A DNA stretch of 32,000 bases from Candidatus Methanophagaceae archaeon GoMg2. GTDB taxonomy: Archaea > Halobacteriota > Syntropharchaeia > Alkanophagales > Methanospirareceae. The notes beneath the pieces are model-generated. The model saw nothing but the letters and a program-made list of their open reading frames with translations. It was not told the origin of the DNA and made no database searches. The DNA is taken from positions 1 through 32,000 of the forward strand of contig QBUM01000250.1 in assembly GCA_013180585.1 (NCBI GenBank). Reading direction: 5' to 3'. Of this stretch, positions 14,295-23,543 are shown in pieces (position 1 is the first letter of the stretch; the number at the start of each line of letters is the position of its first letter). The position numbers were made by a program, and so were the translations under genes.

Positions 14295-14525
14295 ATGAAC
14301 GAAGCGGAACGGATAAAAAAGGACATTGCTCTTTTCGATAAGAGCATAACAGAACTGAGCGCTTTATCGCTCGAAGGCAAGGAGGAAGAAGTGGTAGAAC
14401 TTGCCAAGGGATACTTTGAGGATACGAAATATTATCTTGATAAGGGCGATTACTTCACGGCCTTTGGTTGTATAAACTATGCTCACGGGTTATTAGATGC
14501 GATAAGACGCAATAAAGAAGAATAG
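14295..14525 (+). CDS. DUF357-family small archaeal protein
   Basis: 76 aa. [33 protein letters not shown] matches the remembered DUF357 pattern (Y..D..Y.l..GD...A....YA.G.LDA). Confidence 0.55.
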
Positions 14526-14539
14526 GTGACTGCCCTCTT

Positions 14540-15094
14540 CTATTTTTTCCCTACGCTGCGGAATGAGACAGCTATTACAAACCATATAATAAACGGCACC
14601 GCTATGCCTACAATCCCTATTGAAGCATAAACCATCGCTGCAAACTTTGAATGGTCTATATACATAGGAAAGCGTACCAGAATATCTGTGACATGCAGAA
14701 GAAATAGAATCGGGACGCCTATTGCAAGTATTTCAAGTCTCTTCTTCAGTATCAGCTTCGGCGTTGCTATCGCCAATGCGAACAACGGAACTAAATTAAA
14801 ATTCACAAGATAAGCTTTTCCTAAGTTAAGAGCAGCGATTTGCTCTTTTGTATAACCCATAAGAAGTGGAAAAGGTTTTGAAAACGCAAAGACCGCACTT
14901 TGATAAAATTCACCAAGGTAAAACTTCCACCATACAATTAGAAGCGCCGCGGCGACAACCAGGAACTCCAGCAAGAAGATCAAAATTTGATTCTTAGTTA
15001 AATTTAAAATATCGCATTTACCATTTGCCGGCGGCTTTTCATCTGCTTTCACTTCTTTCTTTCCCCCAGTTCCCCTGCGCTTATCCTTCGCCAT
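14540..15094 (-). CDS. Cys-less paralogue of the adjacent archaeosortase-like protein
   Basis: Overlaps the upstream gene by 14 nt. It has the same basic N-tail and TM layout, and AIATPKLILKKRLEILAIGVPILFLLHVTDILVRF aligns to the paralogue core. NLV occupies the position of ECT. Confidence 0.55.
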   Translation of the reverse strand: MAKDKRRGTGGKKEVKADEKPPANGKCDILNLTKNQILIFLLEFLVVAAALLIVWWKFYLGEFYQSAVFAFSKPFPLLMGYTKEQIAALNLGKAYLVNFNLVPLFALAIATPKLILKKRLEILAIGVPILFLLHVTDILVRFPMYIDHSKFAAMVYASIGIVGIAVPFIIWFVIAVSFRSVGKK

Positions 15095-15701
15095 CTGCCA
15101 CCACCACCTTCAGCCATATCAGAAAGAGCACTACCACGAATATGATAAAAGAAGCCTGCCACAGATACACGTGCATAAACTCAAACATCTCGGGATTGTG
15201 CATGCCAACAAGAGCCAGTACGAAAATACGAAGGAGGTTTATTGCATAGAGGCTGGGTACGCCGAAGAGGATACCCAGACCTTTCTGCTTTGGCGTTGCG
15301 GGATATGCTAATACACAGGAGCTATACACGATGGACGAGAAAACTGCGGTACATTCGTCTATTATCTCCATCGAGAAGCCATTGATTGTTAACACGTCGC
15401 CCCTCACAACTACGTCCAGCCCCACCAAAGAGAAGATAGCACCTAAAATTAATGCGGTGACGTGCCTCACATGCACCATTATCCCCGAGCCGCTAACTGT
15501 TATAGCGTAATAAACCATATAAAACGCGAAACAAAAAGCTAAGAAAAGAGCCACGTACTTTATTGCCTCCCCGTTCTCTTTTACTATTTCCAATATGGGG
15601 GTTAATATACCTTTTTTAGCAGGGGTTTTATCGTTAACGCTATGCGCCACATTCTTCTTGCTCTGCGTTCTTCCTCCTTTCCCCTTTTTTCGGGCCGTCA
15701 T
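15081..15701 (-). CDS. Small archaeosortase/exosortase-family protein
   Basis: 206 aa and polytopic. It carries the ordered Cys (MEIIDECTAVFSS), Arg (YAINLLRIFVLAL) and His (FEFMHVYLW) signature and sits directly downstream of a protein with a tripartite C-terminal sorting tail. Confidence 0.6.
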   Translation of the reverse strand: MTARKKGKGGRTQSKKNVAHSVNDKTPAKKGILTPILEIVKENGEAIKYVALFLAFCFAFYMVYYAITVSGSGIMVHVRHVTALILGAIFSLVGLDVVVRGDVLTINGFSMEIIDECTAVFSSIVYSSCVLAYPATPKQKGLGILFGVPSLYAINLLRIFVLALVGMHNPEMFEFMHVYLWQASFIIFVVVLFLIWLKVVVADGEG

Positions 15702-15791
15702 AAATGCAAAGAAAGAGAGAGAGTTGAAAAACGTTTAACTATTCCAACTTATTTTACAGTGCGAGAATAAAAACAAAAAGGGAAGACGGCC

Positions 15792-17435
15792 TTATCTACG
15801 TCTTCCTATCATACCTCTTATTGCAACCAGACTCAGCAGTCCAATCAAAGCTGCGATACCTACCGGCATAAGCACTGGTAGCTCTGGAACCCCTCTGATC
15901 TTTGTTATCGCCGACCGATCTATAGGCTCTGTCTCATCGGTAGTCAGGATAGCGGTATTGTTTATGACTGTTCCAGCAGGCACAAAAGCATTTATTTTGG
16001 CTTTAAACGTTGCATCTCCGCCTACTCCGGATGCCAACGTGCCTATATCCCATATCAGCGTGTTATTCACAGGATAATAGGTTCCCGCGTCATCATCCGC
16101 TGCGTCGGTTAGATCAACGCCGTTTAAGCCCATGCTTTCTGATATGTAAGTGGTGTTCGCTGGTATCGTATCATGTATCGTAGCGTTCGTAAGCGTTCCG
16201 GCTCCGATATTGTTATAGTGTATCCGGTAACTGAGCGTGTCATTGGAAGAAGCAAAGCTCTTATCAACCGTCTTATACGCAGATAGTTCAAAACTCGGTA
16301 ACACTAAAACCGTCGTATTCACAGAGGCGTTTTTCGGTTCTGTTTCATTTGTGTCTATCGTGGCGGTATTGGTTATTAACGTATTATTTGTGAGATAATC
16401 GTGAACCGTTACATCGAACGATTGCGTTCCCTCTGCTCCAATCAACAAGTTGCCTATGTTCCAGACGATTCTGCCCACATCTACTTTTCCACCACCGGAT
16501 ATGCTTCCATCAACTAAAGTGGTATCTGTGGGAATCGGGTCGGTTAAAATGACTTCTGTAAGGTCTTCGTTATCATCGTTCCTATAGGTTATTGTATAGC
16601 TTAGCACGTCACTACAGTTGCATGTTGGTTTACTGACGTTCTTAGTGATGCTGACATGTGGTTTTAATTCCCTTTGCATCTTCTCTTTTATTGCTTCAGG
16701 GAAAGCCTCCCAATTTGGAGCTTCCATGTAAAACCCGGAATGATTAGCTGGTTTTAGCGAATAATTCAACTTAACCAAGAATTCACGGTTATATGGCTGC
16801 GCGGGTGGGTGAGCTTCATCAATGACATCAACACCGAGAACGTTCACTTCGTCAAAATAGCCTTTAAATATCGCATCATCCCTCGCTTCATATGTTGCAT
16901 CTACGGCCGGTTGGTATTCTTCCCTATTTCCACCACATATCCAATTTGGTCGCCCATCTGTTGATATATCTATTATTTGCCTAACATTCGGAGAGGTATT
17001 TCCTCTTGTGACGTAATCCGTTAAGGTTTCGTTCGCTAATGTGAATGCTCTTGGCATTGGGGTATGATCCCCGGGCTGCGGCATAGCCAATATGGTGTCA
17101 GCGATGGAATCGGCAACGGTCTGGTTTGTGATTGTTGTAAGGGGCACTTCCACATTAGCGTAATATGGTGGGGAACGTGGCCCCTTAATACGGTTAGGGG
17201 GGAAATACCCAAACATGATTACACAAACTGAGATATCACCATTTTGTGGAGTTACCGATGAGTTTGATATAGCATCAGCGTATCCGTTCAATTGTATAGA
17301 ATAGTTCGCAGGGCTAATGCTATTGGACCCATCCAGTATCAAGAACAAATCCACCTTTTCCGCTGCGCTCACTCCTGTCAATGCAAAAGCAGAAATCACT
17401 AAAATCGCTGCAATAAATATTCCTCTTCCTTTCAT
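15792..17435 (-). CDS. Surface glycoprotein: signal peptide, vWA (MIDAS) domain, 2 DUF11 repeats, non-PGF C-terminal sorting signal
   Basis: Signal MKGRGIFIAAILVISAFALTGVSAAE; vWA motifs LILDGSNS and IIDISTDG; DUF11-like SYTITYRNDDNEDLTEVILTDPIP and SYRIHYNNIGAGTLTNATIHDTIP; about 18 N-x-S/T sequons; tail GVPELPVLMPVGIAALIGLLSLVAIRGMIGRRR. Confidence 0.8.
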   Translation of the reverse strand: MKGRGIFIAAILVISAFALTGVSAAEKVDLFLILDGSNSISPANYSIQLNGYADAISNSSVTPQNGDISVCVIMFGYFPPNRIKGPRSPPYYANVEVPLTTITNQTVADSIADTILAMPQPGDHTPMPRAFTLANETLTDYVTRGNTSPNVRQIIDISTDGRPNWICGGNREEYQPAVDATYEARDDAIFKGYFDEVNVLGVDVIDEAHPPAQPYNREFLVKLNYSLKPANHSGFYMEAPNWEAFPEAIKEKMQRELKPHVSITKNVSKPTCNCSDVLSYTITYRNDDNEDLTEVILTDPIPTDTTLVDGSISGGGKVDVGRIVWNIGNLLIGAEGTQSFDVTVHDYLTNNTLITNTATIDTNETEPKNASVNTTVLVLPSFELSAYKTVDKSFASSNDTLSYRIHYNNIGAGTLTNATIHDTIPANTTYISESMGLNGVDLTDAADDDAGTYYPVNNTLIWDIGTLASGVGGDATFKAKINAFVPAGTVINNTAILTTDETEPIDRSAITKIRGVPELPVLMPVGIAALIGLLSLVAIRGMIGRRR

Positions 17436-18014: not shown

Positions 18015-18740
18015 TCAGCCCTTCCTTCTCCACCGCACTAAATACGCGACTGCGATTACCCCCGCAATAAAGAAAACGGCTTCAAATCCAGGGGTTGACG
18101 GCTTTGTCGTTGTACTTGGCGTTGGCTCTAGTGTTTCTGTAGGGGTTGTTGTCGGTGTTGGCGTTGCCTCATGTGTAGCCTCGGGACTCGCTGTTGGTGT
18201 AATTGTCTCATTTACCGCTGCTGGTGTAGCCGTTGCATTTGATGATGCTTCTACTTCGCTACTTTCGCTCGCTACGCCATTGCCTGAAATTGTTGCTGTT
18301 ACTACGGTTCTAGGTTCCACAAAAGTTACCTCCGTTAAATTCCATCCGCCACTACGACACCTTACGTGAATCCCTGCAACTCCCGTTTCATTTCCCGATA
18401 GTAGCGCGATTGCTGTGCCATTGTCATCTGTGATTACGTTAATACTGGAGCCGGTATTGCTTTCATTTCCCGCATCGGTAAGCCAAGCAGATGCCCCCTC
18501 CATTATAGACATAATCACCGTCTCATTCTCCGCAGGTTCACCACTATGTTCAGTTTCTTCCGGCCACCGAACCACCACTTTTATCTCTGACGTGGAATTG
18601 CCATCGGCAGGTATTTCAGCGGGATTCGCACTAATTGTCACCCAGTCACTCGCTCTGTCCGCTCCCGTCCCCTGCGCCCCTGCAAGAGCAGGAAGTGCAA
18701 ATAAAACTACTGCTAAAATTGCCCATATTCTTATTGTCAT
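18015..18740 (-). CDS. PGF-CTERM-anchored surface protein with an Ig-like (Big_1-type) domain and a Thr/Pro linker
   Basis: Signal MTIRIWAILAVVLFALPALAGA; WVTISANPAEIPADGNSTSEIKVVV; linker TPTPTTTPTETLEPTPSTTTKPST; terminal PGFEAVFFIAGVIAVAYLVRWRRKG. Confidence 0.85.
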   Translation of the reverse strand: MTIRIWAILAVVLFALPALAGAQGTGADRASDWVTISANPAEIPADGNSTSEIKVVVRWPEETEHSGEPAENETVIMSIMEGASAWLTDAGNESNTGSSINVITDDNGTAIALLSGNETGVAGIHVRCRSGGWNLTEVTFVEPRTVVTATISGNGVASESSEVEASSNATATPAAVNETITPTASPEATHEATPTPTTTPTETLEPTPSTTTKPSTPGFEAVFFIAGVIAVAYLVRWRRKG

Positions 18741-18881: not shown

Positions 18882-21800
18882 TTACGATACTTTGTATGTC
18901 CAGTATGCTTTTCCGGGTTCGAGTTCTTCGCCTGGTGGTCCTGGTATCAACGACATGAAGTCGTATGGATATGGGTATCCGTTCCTGTATTTCAGAATCA
19001 CTGCACTTAGCGGTATATCCTTACCATCCATGCGTAAACTCTCGTTGCCTATACCTATCAGGTTCCAGCCCGTACCTGAATTGTCGTAAATCTCTTGCCA
19101 CGTTAGTGATACACCAGTTCCGTATACTGTAATCTCCTTCGGCGCCCATGGGTTGTACACGTAGTAGCCCTTGCCACCCTCTACTTCACTTGCTTCTGAC
19201 CAGCCCGTTGTTGCATTATAGCTCCATACTTCCACGTCACGACCGAAGATAGCTTCCGTGTTTTTATTGTCTGGTATTACTGGCAGTGATACGTAGTTCT
19301 GTCCCACATCAAGCGGGACGATGAATGGTTTTTTTCCCGGCTCAAATATGGGTATCTCTGGGTCCTTGTTCATGTAGATGCCTGTGCCATCCTCTGGGTT
19401 GTACGTGAATGCGAACCTATCTCTCGCCGGGTATGACTGACCACGGTTCAGGTCGCCTTTTGCATTCGGTGCAAAGAACGAAGTCGTGATTATGTAACAT
19501 CCCGGTTGTGCATTGTTCACCATATCAAACCGTATATCAGGCTCGAATGTGAGCTGATATTCGCCGCCCACGTAAACCTCTGGGTTCAACGAAGGTATCT
19601 CAGGCAGTAGGAATCTGGTGTACTCGTCTGGTATCGTCTGTATATCGAACTTAGTCCATGACTCGATAAGACCACTCTCGTTCAGTATCTCTAGCAAGTT
19701 AGTCGAATATCTCGGCTCTGGCTTTTCATCTTTCCAGCAGAACTCCAACGGATCCAGATCCTCTATGATTCGCTCGTCAACGTCGTTTGCAATCCAGTGT
19801 TCGGTGTCAAAGACCGTGAATCTACCAGGCAGCGGCATTGGTATTCCGCATTCGCAACACTGCCAGCCATTTGGCACTGCTACATTTACGTCTCCCGGAT
19901 AGAACGGACCTCCATAGTCACTCCATAACTGCCAATCTGATGGTATACTTGTAGTCATATCTCCGTCTGTATCAATCGGCACTGCACGGAAGAATCTCAA
20001 CCATGCTGCCGGTGGATACTGCATTGTCAGGTAGCGTTCTCCACATGGGAAGTACTCTGTACCTGCTTTTCCGGTATCTCTATCGCCATAAGGCCACTTG
20101 TCCAGTAGTTTCAATGGTTGCCACAGTACCACATCGGTATCGTCCACGAGTTCGTGATCCATGTTCATCGGTGGAAGCACTGGTAGTGCCAATAGCGGAT
20201 AGCAAGGTTTAACTTTCGTGAGCCATTGCGAGTCTGCACATGGCAGATAATGTTGTCTCAGTGTGTATTCGCCATCGTCAAGATACTTCGGAAGTGGTGT
20301 TCTCAATGTTATGTACTTGAACTTCTCACAATCATATCTGTTCCCATCGTTGTCCAGAACCTCTATTGCAGGTATCTCGTATCGCACTCCGTCCACGTAG
20401 AAGATGTCTCCTCTCTGTAATTCTTTACCCACTGTGATCAGTGCCTTATCTCCAGAAAATCGTCCTTCGTAGTTAGCATACCATGTTCTATCTGGATGCT
20501 TTTTTGTTGTTTCGAAACTATGTCTATCGAAGTACTTTCTTTCATTAGTTTTCAAATAGTTTTGTACACCATCTTCTGGTTCGGAATTACCGTAGTACGA
20601 TATGAACACCATCGGATAGCTATCAGATATGTCATATCCATCGAATAGCAGACTGTGGTCAAGGAATTGCACTTCATCGCCTTCCTCCATGATGTACGTC
20701 TTCTCTATACTTATTGTTCCGTTTGTTGTTTTCGGTAGTAACCCGTCCATGTCCGATGGGTCGCAAGATATGTTTGCGAGTCTTACAAGGTTAGTCCTTT
20801 TAGACTCGGCACCTGGGTTCTCAAAAGAATCAAGTCCTATCTGATCCGTTGTTGGATCTGATACGATTGGGAATGGGAACCAACTGCCTACATCTGCATG
20901 ATGTGGTTTCTTGTCCTGCGAATCAATAAGCATATAAGTTGTCTCGATAACTATTGCTGGTGCTAACCCAATCATCTCATGCCAGCCATAGAACTCGTAC
21001 TCGGGCACATACCATACTCTTAAGTACTCCTTCAGGTCACTGTTTTCATCCTGTGCATTTGTTGGATACTCTGGGCTGTGTCGTAGTATCGCTGCATCAA
21101 AGGTGATCGAATCCTTTCTTATCGCAGTCGGATTGAAAGGCTCTTCCCAGCTCACGTATTGCTCGATATTGCAGCTATTGTTAATTCCAAACGTGCTATC
21201 ACTACCATTACCGTATATCTTCACTGTGCCTTTCTTTAGCTCTTCATCATAGTACACATAGATGTCATTACCGTCCTCTCCGTCCTTCTGATCGTATGAG
21301 AACGCGACTCTCTGTTCAGTGGGATCTCCACCTCTTTTGTTGTCGTACAAATCTCCTGTTGCTTGCGGTGCAATCCACGAAGTCGTGATGATGTAATCAC
21401 CATCAAGTTCGACCGGCCAGCCACCATCTCTAGGTATTGTATAATAGTCTGGTAGTTCAGGTAGCACGAACATTGTGTACTGGTCTGGTAGAGACTGAAC
21501 ATCGAATTTCGTCCATGACTCTGTTATTAGTCCTCCTGCCTCTTCTCTTATCTTCTCTATGGTTTTATCCACGATGATCTCAGAATTTTCTGCAAATATG
21601 TAGAAACCTGGTGGAATATTCCATGGTTGTGGGTTTGCCAAGCTCTTCAAAAAGTCTTCATCAATCGAGTCCGCAGATTCTCCTAGCCCGAAAACGTTTA
21701 TTACATCAAGTCCCGCATCCAATGAAGCATTTCTCGCTTCCATCGTTGCATCAGCATCTCCGCTTGGTATGCCTCCATCACTGGATATATCAAGTATTTG

Positions 21801-23543
21801 CAGTCTTGCACTGGCATCTGGATTTTCTTCTATGAGTGTTTTTATTTTGTCGAATGCTGCAATCATGTTGGTGCCGCCATCTATTGCGTCCATCGCCCGT
21901 ATCTGTGTCGCAACACTGTTGACTGTGTCAGGTGTTATTGTAGTAAGTGGTACTTCTACCTTGGCAACGTCCGAAAACTGAATCACACACACAGAGACAG
22001 TGCCATCCTGAGGTATTTCGTATATCGCCGAAGCTAAACCTTCTTTCTGCAAATCAAAGTATCCGTGCATAGCCAGGTTTTGTGATGAATCAACAACAAG
22101 GAATAAATCCTTTTGCTCTTTACCTTTCCAGTCTTCTCGCAGCTTCTCCAGTAAATTCGTTGAATATCGCTCTTCTACTTGCTCTTCGATGTATATAACC
22201 TCTAATGGGTCTATGTTATCAATTACTCGCATCTCAACATCGTATGCGATCCAATCGCCCTCGCTGTCTGTAAGTTCTGTACCATCATAATCCTGCCTTG
22301 TCCAGTCTCTTTCTTCTGTAGCATCTGTCCACAACGGTATGTCTATGTCATCAACCATGTCATGGTTCATGTTAAACGGCGGAAGCAGCGGTATTAACTC
22401 TGATTGCGCGATACACTCTATAAACTGTGTAGATACTATGCTCTCATCACGAACAGAATCATCGCCCTTCGGCAGCTTCGTCCTCAGCGTTAGGAACTTG
22501 AAAGCATCCGCTTCACCATCTAGCGGTTGTAATGTATCAAGCACTGCGACTGCCGTTACATCGTATCTTACTGCATCAACGTAGAACACATCGCCCCAGT
22601 TTAGCTCCTTACCGACGTAGATAAGAGGTCCATCCCGGCGTACATACCATGTCCTCATCGGAGTTGTTGTGTCTTCACCGTGATTCGGACTGGGATGCTC
22701 ATTGTTATGACGGTCAAAGTATATTGTTTGTTGAGGACCTATACTGATCCAGCCTTTTTCTGCATCGTCCAGTTTATTTCCTGTATACCCCACTTTTATA
22801 ACGTAGTCATCAGTTTCTTCATTGACCGTGGTGAGTTCCACATAGTGATCGAAGAACCGCACAGTAGATCCTACAACCGGAGTAAATTGCTTCTCGAGAG
22901 TAATGTTTCCCTTTACAGTTGTACCGTCTGGATCTACAATTCCACTAACACTTGCAAGCGTGGTTATGTTGTCAACATTTGTTCCGCTCTTCCATGCACC
23001 GAGTCCCGTCTGTGTATCAATCTCACATGTTGGTACTAAAAATTGTGTCTTTGGTGCTGTGCCCGTTATTGGTAGATACAAAGTGTCCATCAGCATGTAA
23101 GTGTATTCCATGTTTATCGTGGGATGTGTGTCATTCTTTCTCGGACCATTGTACTGACCACAGGGCTCGTACCATGACCTCAAGAATATCTTCTCACGGG
23201 CGTTCTCTGGACTGCCGATCGCATTACCTACTAATACACGATAATACGGTTCCCCTTCTTCGTGGCTCTCTTCAATAATCGCTGGATTGTACGTGATCGA
23301 ATCTTTTGGTATTACTGTCGGGTCAAATGGGTCTTCAAAATTGATATATCGCTCTGGTGCATTCCCATGTGGTTGCACGTCACCGTATATCCTTACCGAA
23401 GAAGCAGGTTCTTCCTCTGGAGGAAACCCCCCATTCGTTCCTGCCATACTGGTAGGCGCGACCATAGCAAATATCGAAGCGACCATTATCGCCGCCATTG
23501 CTATCCCTACTATCACTTTTCCTTCTCTTACTTTTGTTTTCAT
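18882..23543 (-). CDS. Giant secreted protein (1553 aa): two tandem copies of an uncharacterised ~650-aa module, a vWA domain inserted in copy 1, and a distinct C-terminal beta-rich domain
   Basis: Single uninterrupted track ORF; signal peptide MKTKVREGKVIVGIAMAAIMVASIFAMVAPTSMAG; SD aggagg. The internal duplication and vWA motifs are detailed in the findings. Confidence 0.9.
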   Translation of the reverse strand: MKTKVREGKVIVGIAMAAIMVASIFAMVAPTSMAGTNGGFPPEEEPASSVRIYGDVQPHGNAPERYINFEDPFDPTVIPKDSITYNPAIIEESHEEGEPYYRVLVGNAIGSPENAREKIFLRSWYEPCGQYNGPRKNDTHPTINMEYTYMLMDTLYLPITGTAPKTQFLVPTCEIDTQTGLGAWKSGTNVDNITTLASVSGIVDPDGTTVKGNITLEKQFTPVVGSTVRFFDHYVELTTVNEETDDYVIKVGYTGNKLDDAEKGWISIGPQQTIYFDRHNNEHPSPNHGEDTTTPMRTWYVRRDGPLIYVGKELNWGDVFYVDAVRYDVTAVAVLDTLQPLDGEADAFKFLTLRTKLPKGDDSVRDESIVSTQFIECIAQSELIPLLPPFNMNHDMVDDIDIPLWTDATEERDWTRQDYDGTELTDSEGDWIAYDVEMRVIDNIDPLEVIYIEEQVEERYSTNLLEKLREDWKGKEQKDLFLVVDSSQNLAMHGYFDLQKEGLASAIYEIPQDGTVSVCVIQFSDVAKVEVPLTTITPDTVNSVATQIRAMDAIDGGTNMIAAFDKIKTLIEENPDASARLQILDISSDGGIPSGDADATMEARNASLDAGLDVINVFGLGESADSIDEDFLKSLANPQPWNIPPGFYIFAENSEIIVDKTIEKIREEAGGLITESWTKFDVQSLPDQYTMFVLPELPDYYTIPRDGGWPVELDGDYIITTSWIAPQATGDLYDNKRGGDPTEQRVAFSYDQKDGEDGNDIYVYYDEELKKGTVKIYGNGSDSTFGINNSCNIEQYVSWEEPFNPTAIRKDSITFDAAILRHSPEYPTNAQDENSDLKEYLRVWYVPEYEFYGWHEMIGLAPAIVIETTYMLIDSQDKKPHHADVGSWFPFPIVSDPTTDQIGLDSFENPGAESKRTNLVRLANISCDPSDMDGLLPKTTNGTISIEKTYIMEEGDEVQFLDHSLLFDGYDISDSYPMVFISYYGNSEPEDGVQNYLKTNERKYFDRHSFETTKKHPDRTWYANYEGRFSGDKALITVGKELQRGDIFYVDGVRYEIPAIEVLDNDGNRYDCEKFKYITLRTPLPKYLDDGEYTLRQHYLPCADSQWLTKVKPCYPLLALPVLPPMNMDHELVDDTDVVLWQPLKLLDKWPYGDRDTGKAGTEYFPCGERYLTMQYPPAAWLRFFRAVPIDTDGDMTTSIPSDWQLWSDYGGPFYPGDVNVAVPNGWQCCECGIPMPLPGRFTVFDTEHWIANDVDERIIEDLDPLEFCWKDEKPEPRYSTNLLEILNESGLIESWTKFDIQTIPDEYTRFLLPEIPSLNPEVYVGGEYQLTFEPDIRFDMVNNAQPGCYIITTSFFAPNAKGDLNRGQSYPARDRFAFTYNPEDGTGIYMNKDPEIPIFEPGKKPFIVPLDVGQNYVSLPVIPDNKNTEAIFGRDVEVWSYNATTGWSEASEVEGGKGYYVYNPWAPKEITVYGTGVSLTWQEIYDNSGTGWNLIGIGNESLRMDGKDIPLSAVILKYRNGYPYPYDFMSLIPGPPGEELEPGKAYWTYKVS

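Follow-up and report, generated by a model that had tools for sequence, protein, structure and literature searches.

The two overlapping genes studied here most plausibly encode a two-part sortase, in which a 206-aa archaeosortase is the enzyme and the 184-aa protein encoded directly downstream is an obligate non-catalytic subunit; we put the probability of this reading at about 0.6. The genes lie in a window of 32,000 nt, the whole stretch of DNA that was analysed, from contig QBUM01000250.1 of Candidatus Methanophagaceae archaeon GoMg2, which oxidises methane and belongs to the ANME-1 group. In the mechanism that we propose, the archaeosortase would recognise the tail of the adjoining vWA/DUF11 adhesin (LPVLMPVG, a TM helix, RRR), as well as the tails of a few more proteins. 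Cleavage would take place at the outer face of the membrane, after which the protein would probably be passed on to an anchor. The partner is very probably an ancient duplicate of the sortase, which kept the membrane scaffold and lost the three catalytic residues. It would be made in step with the enzyme via translational coupling and would most likely sit beside it as an obligate non-catalytic subunit, so that a physically associated 1:1 pseudo-dimer is predicted. A polar cluster of the partner (N98/N100, H134, D137), found at the position of the enzyme's active site, might then dock the TM helix of the substrate or the acceptor.

Layout of the Locus

The features of the locus are collected in Table 1. 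Both reading frames were recovered as an earlier note on this DNA, made from the letters and their translations, had described them, with 206 and 184 aa and 14 nt in common (15081-15094). A G-rich Shine-Dalgarno-like sequence, GGTGGTGG, stands directly 5' of the partner ATG, and the layout of the overlap is compatible with translational coupling of sortase and partner. The Lys/Arg-rich N-terminal tails reported for both proteins are present, with 11 (206 aa) and 9 (184 aa) K/R ahead of the first TM helix.

Table 1. Features at and around the sortase-partner locus (positions within the window).
Feature	Position	Strand	Basis
Catalytic small archaeosortase, 206 aa, ArtB/XrtH-like clade	15081..15701	(-)	ORF, profiles, and C117, N155, R158, H177
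Partner, 184 aa, putative degenerate sortase paralogue without Cys, Arg, His	14540..15094	(-)	ORF, hhalign vs sortase profile
14-nt gene overlap, partner ATG within the last sortase codons	15081..15094	(-)	ORF coordinates
Candidate substrate, secreted vWA/DUF1194 protein of 547 aa; two DUF11 domains, C-terminal tail in three parts	15792..17435	(-)	Domains, synteny
Sorting-signal-like C-terminal tail: LPVLMPVG, hydrophobic helix, RRR	15795..15893	(-)	Sequence
8-bp hairpin across the stop codon of the adhesin gene, with a T-run after it	15766..15806	(-)	Sequence, fold
DUF357 gene, convergent, downstream, closing the unit	14295-14525	(+)	ORF, domain match

The 206-aa Protein Is a Small Archaeosortase

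The three motifs by which the 206-aa protein had been taken for an archaeosortase with a conserved triad, IIDECTAVFSS, YAINLLRIFVLAL, and FEFMHVYLW, were all found in it, and profile searches bore out the assignment. The exosortase/archaeosortase signature TIGR04178 was passed with 60.4 bits (cut-off 23) and Pfam PF09721 with 40.5 bits (cut-off 25.7). In an alignment of 35 homologues, C117, N155, R158, and H177 are invariant, and the Cys, Arg, and His among them lie in the last three TM helices. Such a conserved Cys/Arg/His triad is the suspected catalytic chemistry of the superfamily (Haft 2023, 10.1101/2023.06.07.544157). With these features, the 206-aa protein is a bona fide small archaeosortase of the exosortase/archaeosortase superfamily.

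The subfamily is less clear-cut, as the top-scoring subfamily model, ArtB (TIGR04144), gives 108.7 bits and stays below its cut-off of 150, while XrtH (TIGR04177) narrowly misses its cut-off of 86 with 82.4 bits. The annotated ones among the 196 database relatives are called ‘exosortase H’ by NCBI and ‘archaeosortase B’ by JGI, and the organisms, where named, are mostly ANME-1/Methanophagales or unclassified Halobacteriota/Euryarchaeota MAGs. A PDB sequence search with the sortase profile gave no match; the AF2 model of the sortase has a mean pLDDT of 72.

Sortase and Partner as a Fixed Module

Whether a small archaeosortase is always followed by a Cys-less paralogue, a point that the earlier note had proposed to survey, was followed through related genomes. 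The partner lies on the same strand and downstream of the sortase in 28/28 ANME-1-class loci from other genomes. The two genes overlap in 16 of these loci and are separated by gaps of 2-69 nt in 10, which gives an overlap or short gap in 26/28, while one locus is fused and one split. Each genome has a single partner gene, which invariably adjoins the small sortase; ArtA has no such partner. Within the class, 31 of the 79 genomes carry the sortase and 29 the partner, and the two sortase-only genomes have partial matches, one at a contig end and the other a 145-aa frame. The arrangement recurs in three metagenome relatives that are very distant from the family (E of about 1e-4 to 1e-5 with its profile); in each of them, the overlap is with the 3' end of a gene for an Exosortase_EpsH protein. 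Natural fusions in the order sortase-partner were found in at least nine proteins; one fusion cluster is annotated as ‘exosortase H’ in Ca. Methanogaster (ANME-2), for instance the 390-aa protein P0398.

The co-occurrence, the overlapping genes, and the natural fusions support the reading of sortase and partner as an obligate pair, with the partner as a putative subunit. A co-operonic, membrane-embedded partner might also act conditionally, as a regulator, chaperone, or membrane ‘holdase’ for substrate or sortase, and not as a stoichiometric subunit; pseudoenzymes do often act as regulators. We nevertheless consider this rather unlikely, as the repeated independent fusions and the strict 1:1 co-occurrence favour a fixed complex.

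Some irregular partner loci were seen in the survey. In the split locus (L007, G039:C41, 1995-2670; L033), 674 nt with two small opposite-strand ORFs stand between sortase and partner, and by eye these ORFs look like a HicA/HicB toxin-antitoxin pair. On this contig there is also another copy of the partner, and it contains an in-frame TAA. The partner match in L024 (G045:C1:44232-44738) contains two in-frame TGA codons, for which pseudogenisation, an error of sequencing, or recoding may be responsible.

The Partner Family and Its Lost Catalytic Residues

No Pfam family matches the 184-aa partner, and NCBIfam gives noise-level matches only, such as the pacearchaeosortase model with E 0.45 across residues 44-179. 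Its 126 relatives are all ‘hypothetical’ and free of Pfam domains; where organisms are named, they are nearly all ANME-1-type or unclassified archaeal MAGs, with one labelled bacterial. In the close family W55, Y64, Y95, N98, N100, P103, T111, P112, R119, G126, H134, D137, and W171 are invariant, and L107 and F168 are conserved as well. The AF2 model, a confident one (mean pLDDT 83.9, pTM 0.73), is all-helical. Foldseek searches of the AF2 models of both proteins against the PDB returned nothing below E 0.9.

In the hhalign register (see below), C117, R158, and H177 of the sortase stand opposite Y95, D137, and Y156 of the partner. By this alignment, the 184-aa protein is devoid of all three triad residues. 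The earlier note had NLV of the partner in place of ECT of the sortase. The loss of Cys in that proposal holds, while the exact register differs by a few residues, as hhalign sets Tyr95, not Leu101, opposite Cys117. The Tyr95/Cys117 pairing itself falls in a low-confidence stretch; nevertheless, the sole Cys of the partner is C27 in the N-terminal, presumably cytoplasmic tail, and with none in the membrane core the loss of the nucleophile holds whatever the register.

The polar residues of the partner occupy columns of the sortase active-site region, and across the wide family of 118 sequences N100 is kept in 96 and H134 in 101, while in the ANME-1 branch D137, N98, and Y95 show no variation. 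The invariant Asn, His, and Asp could provide an activity of their own, and the partner might be a second enzyme in which N98/N100, H134, and D137 catalyse a separate step, such as resolution of an acyl-enzyme or attachment or trimming at the anchor. In addition, a divergent partner subclade has Cys and Arg near the canonical columns. We hold a second enzyme to be unlikely, since no nucleophile is conserved at any canonical column, the column opposite C117 is variable in the 118 sequences, D137 is present in only 56 of them, and no known catalytic family matches the partner among curated profiles or in the Foldseek comparison of its AF2 model with the PDB.

The divergent subclade comprises the ORFs of L027 and L029-L032 and protein P0359. 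Its Cys (‘GIRSCIPPF’) falls in the N100 column and its Arg (‘LFVFRTIL’) in the H134 column; both lie close to the canonical columns but outside them, and they may have migrated or be a coincidence.

Besides the K/R-rich N-terminal tails of both proteins, basic loops follow the P134 column of the sortase (PKQKG) and the P112 column of the partner (KLILKKR), and the linkers of the fusions have mostly 2-15 residues, several of them basic (KKIR, QPRKPKFK). By the positive-inside rule, both termini of sortase and partner would be cytoplasmic, in which case the sortase helix 73-92 and the modelled β-hairpin would not span the membrane. C117, R158, and H177 of the sortase and N98/N100, H134, and D137 of the partner are then predicted at the outer membrane face, the side on which a tail-anchored substrate has its motif.

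Homology of Sortase and Partner

Pairwise BLASTP of the 206-aa against the 184-aa protein found nothing, and hhalign with narrow profiles of partner and sortase gave 27-33% probability over 32 columns. The profiles were widened with the partner-family HMM, which had 153 matches among 1.84 billion representatives; full-length matches were retained, fusions were split at the domain border, and sortases and partners from related genomes were added. With these profiles, the partner family (118 sequences) aligns with the sortase family (48 sequences) at 97.1% probability and E 6.6e-11 across 139 co-linear columns (34-175 vs 43-200). A strict partner set of 53 sequences, made up of relatives of the 184-aa protein and of fused or sortase-adjacent copies, gave 95.9% and E 6.1e-9. 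Controls in which either profile was reversed gave P 0.05-0.11. A signal that rises with the diversity of the profiles is as expected of true remote homology.

The profile alignment that the earlier note had called for thus stands at 96-97% and E 6e-9 to 7e-11 over ~140 co-linear columns. The core alignment that it had drawn by eye (AYPATPKQKG...NLLRIFV vs AIATPKLILKKR...HVTDILV) is in the register found by hhalign, and a 184-aa protein unrelated to archaeosortases, the outcome that would have refuted the idea, is not what the diverse profiles gave, the reversed controls staying at P 0.05-0.11. Nine pairs of conserved residues (partner/sortase) coincide over the whole length: F44/F53, W55/Y64, P112/P134, R119/K140, G126/G147, P128/P149, H134/N155, F168/F193, and W171/W196. 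Curated sortase models also match unfused relatives of the partner weakly, ArtE with 8e-4 and pacearchaeosortase with 3e-4. Against an independent ArtA profile built from 18 genomes, the small sortase reached 96.8%, and the partner P 0.0014-0.0063 and 6-17% probability in the same register; this marginal partner-ArtA signal means that the partner is closest to its own neighbour sortase clade.

In the membrane core, hhalign places the 184-aa protein in the superfamily as a degenerate homologue. We conclude that it is very probably a remote homologue of the sortase, a reading which draws mainly on the comparison with the neighbour clade. A similarity of mere TM-helix composition between non-homologous proteins would account for the empty BLASTP, the 27-33% over 32 columns, the 6-17% with ArtA, and a TM2-TM3 loop that is a β-hairpin in the sortase AF2 model and a short helix in that of the partner, and is nonetheless very unlikely in view of the E-values and co-linear columns of the diverse profiles, the reversed controls, the nine coinciding positions, and the curated sortase HMMs that match partner relatives.

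Two hybrid proteins, P0265 (157 aa) and P0268 (123 aa), join the N-tail and TM1 of a sortase to a partner from the second helix on. The junction is at columns which hhalign aligns in sortase and partner. Deletion by unequal crossover of the paralogues could have produced these hybrids, or else mis-assembly of the metagenomes.

Candidate Substrate and Its Tail

The 547-aa protein encoded upstream of the sortase has a signal peptide besides the vWA/DUF1194 and DUF11 domains, and its tail is tripartite, with a motif, a TM helix, and a basic cluster. Seven further loci have a gene with this tail upstream of their sortase, at a distance of 35-94 nt. On this synteny, the vWA/DUF11 adhesin is the likely cognate substrate, and its cleavage is predicted. 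Two other ORFs of the genome have related tails (IPTLMPVG..., VPALTPAG...).

Curated C-terminal signal models gave no significant match on the adhesin tail, which is conserved and uncatalogued. VPXXXP-CTERM (TIGR04143) scored 12-14 bits on the two other ORFs (cut-off 30) and had no match on the adjacent tail; ‘midcut_by_XrtH’ scored 16-20 bits on two ORFs (cut-off 45), and IPTL-CTERM had no match at E ≤ 10 among the ORFs scanned with signal models. A control with PGF-CTERM was passed by a 241-aa neighbour (26.8 bits, cut-off 24.5).

The hairpin between the substrate and sortase genes folds with −11.2 kcal/mol (z −1.8), which is only moderately unusual. Together with the T-run, it resembles a terminator- or attenuator-like element and may set the expression ratio of the substrate gene to the sortase gene.

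Two further secreted or tailed proteins are encoded upstream on the same strand. The 241-aa protein with a true PGF-CTERM tail lies at 18015-18740 (-). A 1553-aa secreted protein is encoded at 18882-23543 (-). By eye, it lacks a sorting tail and appears to hold a vWA-like region in its interior along with two long, internally repeated halves.

Comparison with Known Systems

A close parallel is the bacterial exosortase H system, in which a small (about 160-200 aa) Cys/Arg/His sortase, XrtH (TIGR04177), is followed by a small multi-TM partner, NF041730. The 184-aa protein is likewise encoded next to a small XrtH-type sortase, ‘exosortase H’ is the NCBI name for near relatives of the 206-aa sortase, and the motif xPxLxxxG of the adhesin tail resembles the IPTLxxWG of IPTLxxWG-CTERM cargo. 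In contrast, the host is archaeal, the sortase has 82.4 bits where the cut-off is 86, and the tail matches no curated model; by at least 86 bits and an IPTLxxWG-CTERM cargo, the 206-aa protein does not class as exosortase H. The same is found for the partner, which falls outside NF041730 as defined by at least 35 bits: the model has no match to the 184-aa protein at E ≤ 1, nor any genome-wide at E ≤ 10 in its own genome, and 0/301 Halobacteriota genomes exceed the cut-off. Below the threshold, 24 of 74 distant partner relatives are matched, the best E-value among the 74 being 3.9e-7, and ten that were scanned individually have 13-21 bits.

Sortase subfamily, partner, and signal of the archaeal branch all stay below their curated thresholds, and the pair is probably an uncatalogued archaeal branch of the bacterial arrangement of exosortase H and its associated membrane protein. 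The earlier note knew of no description of an enzyme/pseudo-enzyme archaeosortase pair. The pairing as such is known, NF041730 being named ‘exosortase H-associated membrane protein’. A literature search that covered XrtH and its associated protein, ArtB, and pseudoenzymes among exosortases turned up no paper on the partner, and none that describes it as a dead paralogue.

The ArtB (TIGR04144)/VPXXXP-CTERM (TIGR04143) system provides the best subfamily model and the JGI name ‘archaeosortase B’ for relatives, and the tails IPTLMP, LPVLMP, and VPALTP fit xPxxxP. It differs in its scores, with 108.7 bits for the sortase where at least 150 are asked for, and 12-14 bits for VPXXXP-CTERM, with none on the adjacent tail, where at least 30 are. 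The 206-aa protein is thus not an archaeosortase B by these thresholds.

The XrtF system of Flavobacterium johnsoniae (Fjoh_1448/1449) also has a minimal exosortase and an adjacent small membrane partner. It is bacterial, and the XrtF model scores 40 bits on the 206-aa sortase; the XrtF partner family is absent among the 25 families listed of 35 that distant partner relatives match. Deletion of either xrtF or the adjacent ‘exosortase F system-associated protein’ leads to the same defect in colonisation and biofilm formation (PMC10936215). By analogy, the XrtF genetics offers a precedent for the need of such a partner.

ArtA of Haloferax volcanii, which acts with PGF-CTERM, belongs to the same superfamily with the same suspected Cys/Arg/His chemistry, yet it is larger (about 270-300 aa), has no such partner, and uses another signal. 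Membrane homologues without catalytic residues are familiar as partners or regulators from iRhoms with rhomboids and from APH-1 in γ-secretase. Their folds and organisms are unrelated to those here, and the parallel is conceptual only.

Significance

To our knowledge, substrate recognition and the acceptor of exosortases and archaeosortases are largely unknown, and we know of no available structure. An enzyme/dead-paralogue pair that is also found naturally fused would be a testable model for minimal members of the family, and the single-chain fusion a convenient target for structure determination. The reading of the 184-aa protein as a subunit would give a function to several hundred archaeal membrane proteins, a family annotated as ‘hypothetical’ and without a Pfam or NCBIfam model. 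It also points to a dedicated anchoring route for the vWA/DUF11 adhesin in ANME-1, for which cell-surface contact with partner bacteria is important in the anaerobic oxidation of methane.

A wider proposal, which we put forward tentatively and regard as doubtful for now, is that minimal (about 5-helix) sortases of the XrtH/ArtB type are active only when paired with a dead paralogue in a pseudo-symmetric heterodimer. The remodelled site of the paralogue (Asn/His, with or without Asp) would bind either the substrate helix or the acceptor, which would be a lipid or glycan head-group. If true, the partner would stand in for the contribution that additional N-terminal helices or EpsI domains make in large enzymes, and this would be an undescribed enzyme/pseudoenzyme architecture common to bacteria and archaea.

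Other Sortases of the Genome and Class

ArtA was not found in the 79%-complete assembly (G000), though ~20 of its ORFs end in PGF-CTERM-like tails. In the class, ArtA is above cut-off in 68/79 genomes, including most of the same-genus genomes surveyed, and its absence from this assembly is most likely an assembly gap. With ArtA in 68/79 class genomes, the idea that the small sortase processes PGF-CTERM in place of a missing ArtA was rejected. The same count contradicts an older statement that ANME-1 lack ArtA (PMC5244752).

The other sortase of the genome (G000:C192; L002 540-2304, minus strand) had been considered as an ArtA, which was rejected, as the protein is an 8-TM EpsH-type exosortase of the bacterial kind. 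It scores 130 bits with TIGR02602 (cut-off 105.55), and a weak EpsI-like protein is encoded after it. About 20 ORFs of the genome end in PEP-CTERM- or PEF-CTERM-like tails (PIPEL-ST, IPEF-TT), which would fit this 8-TM EpsH exosortase.
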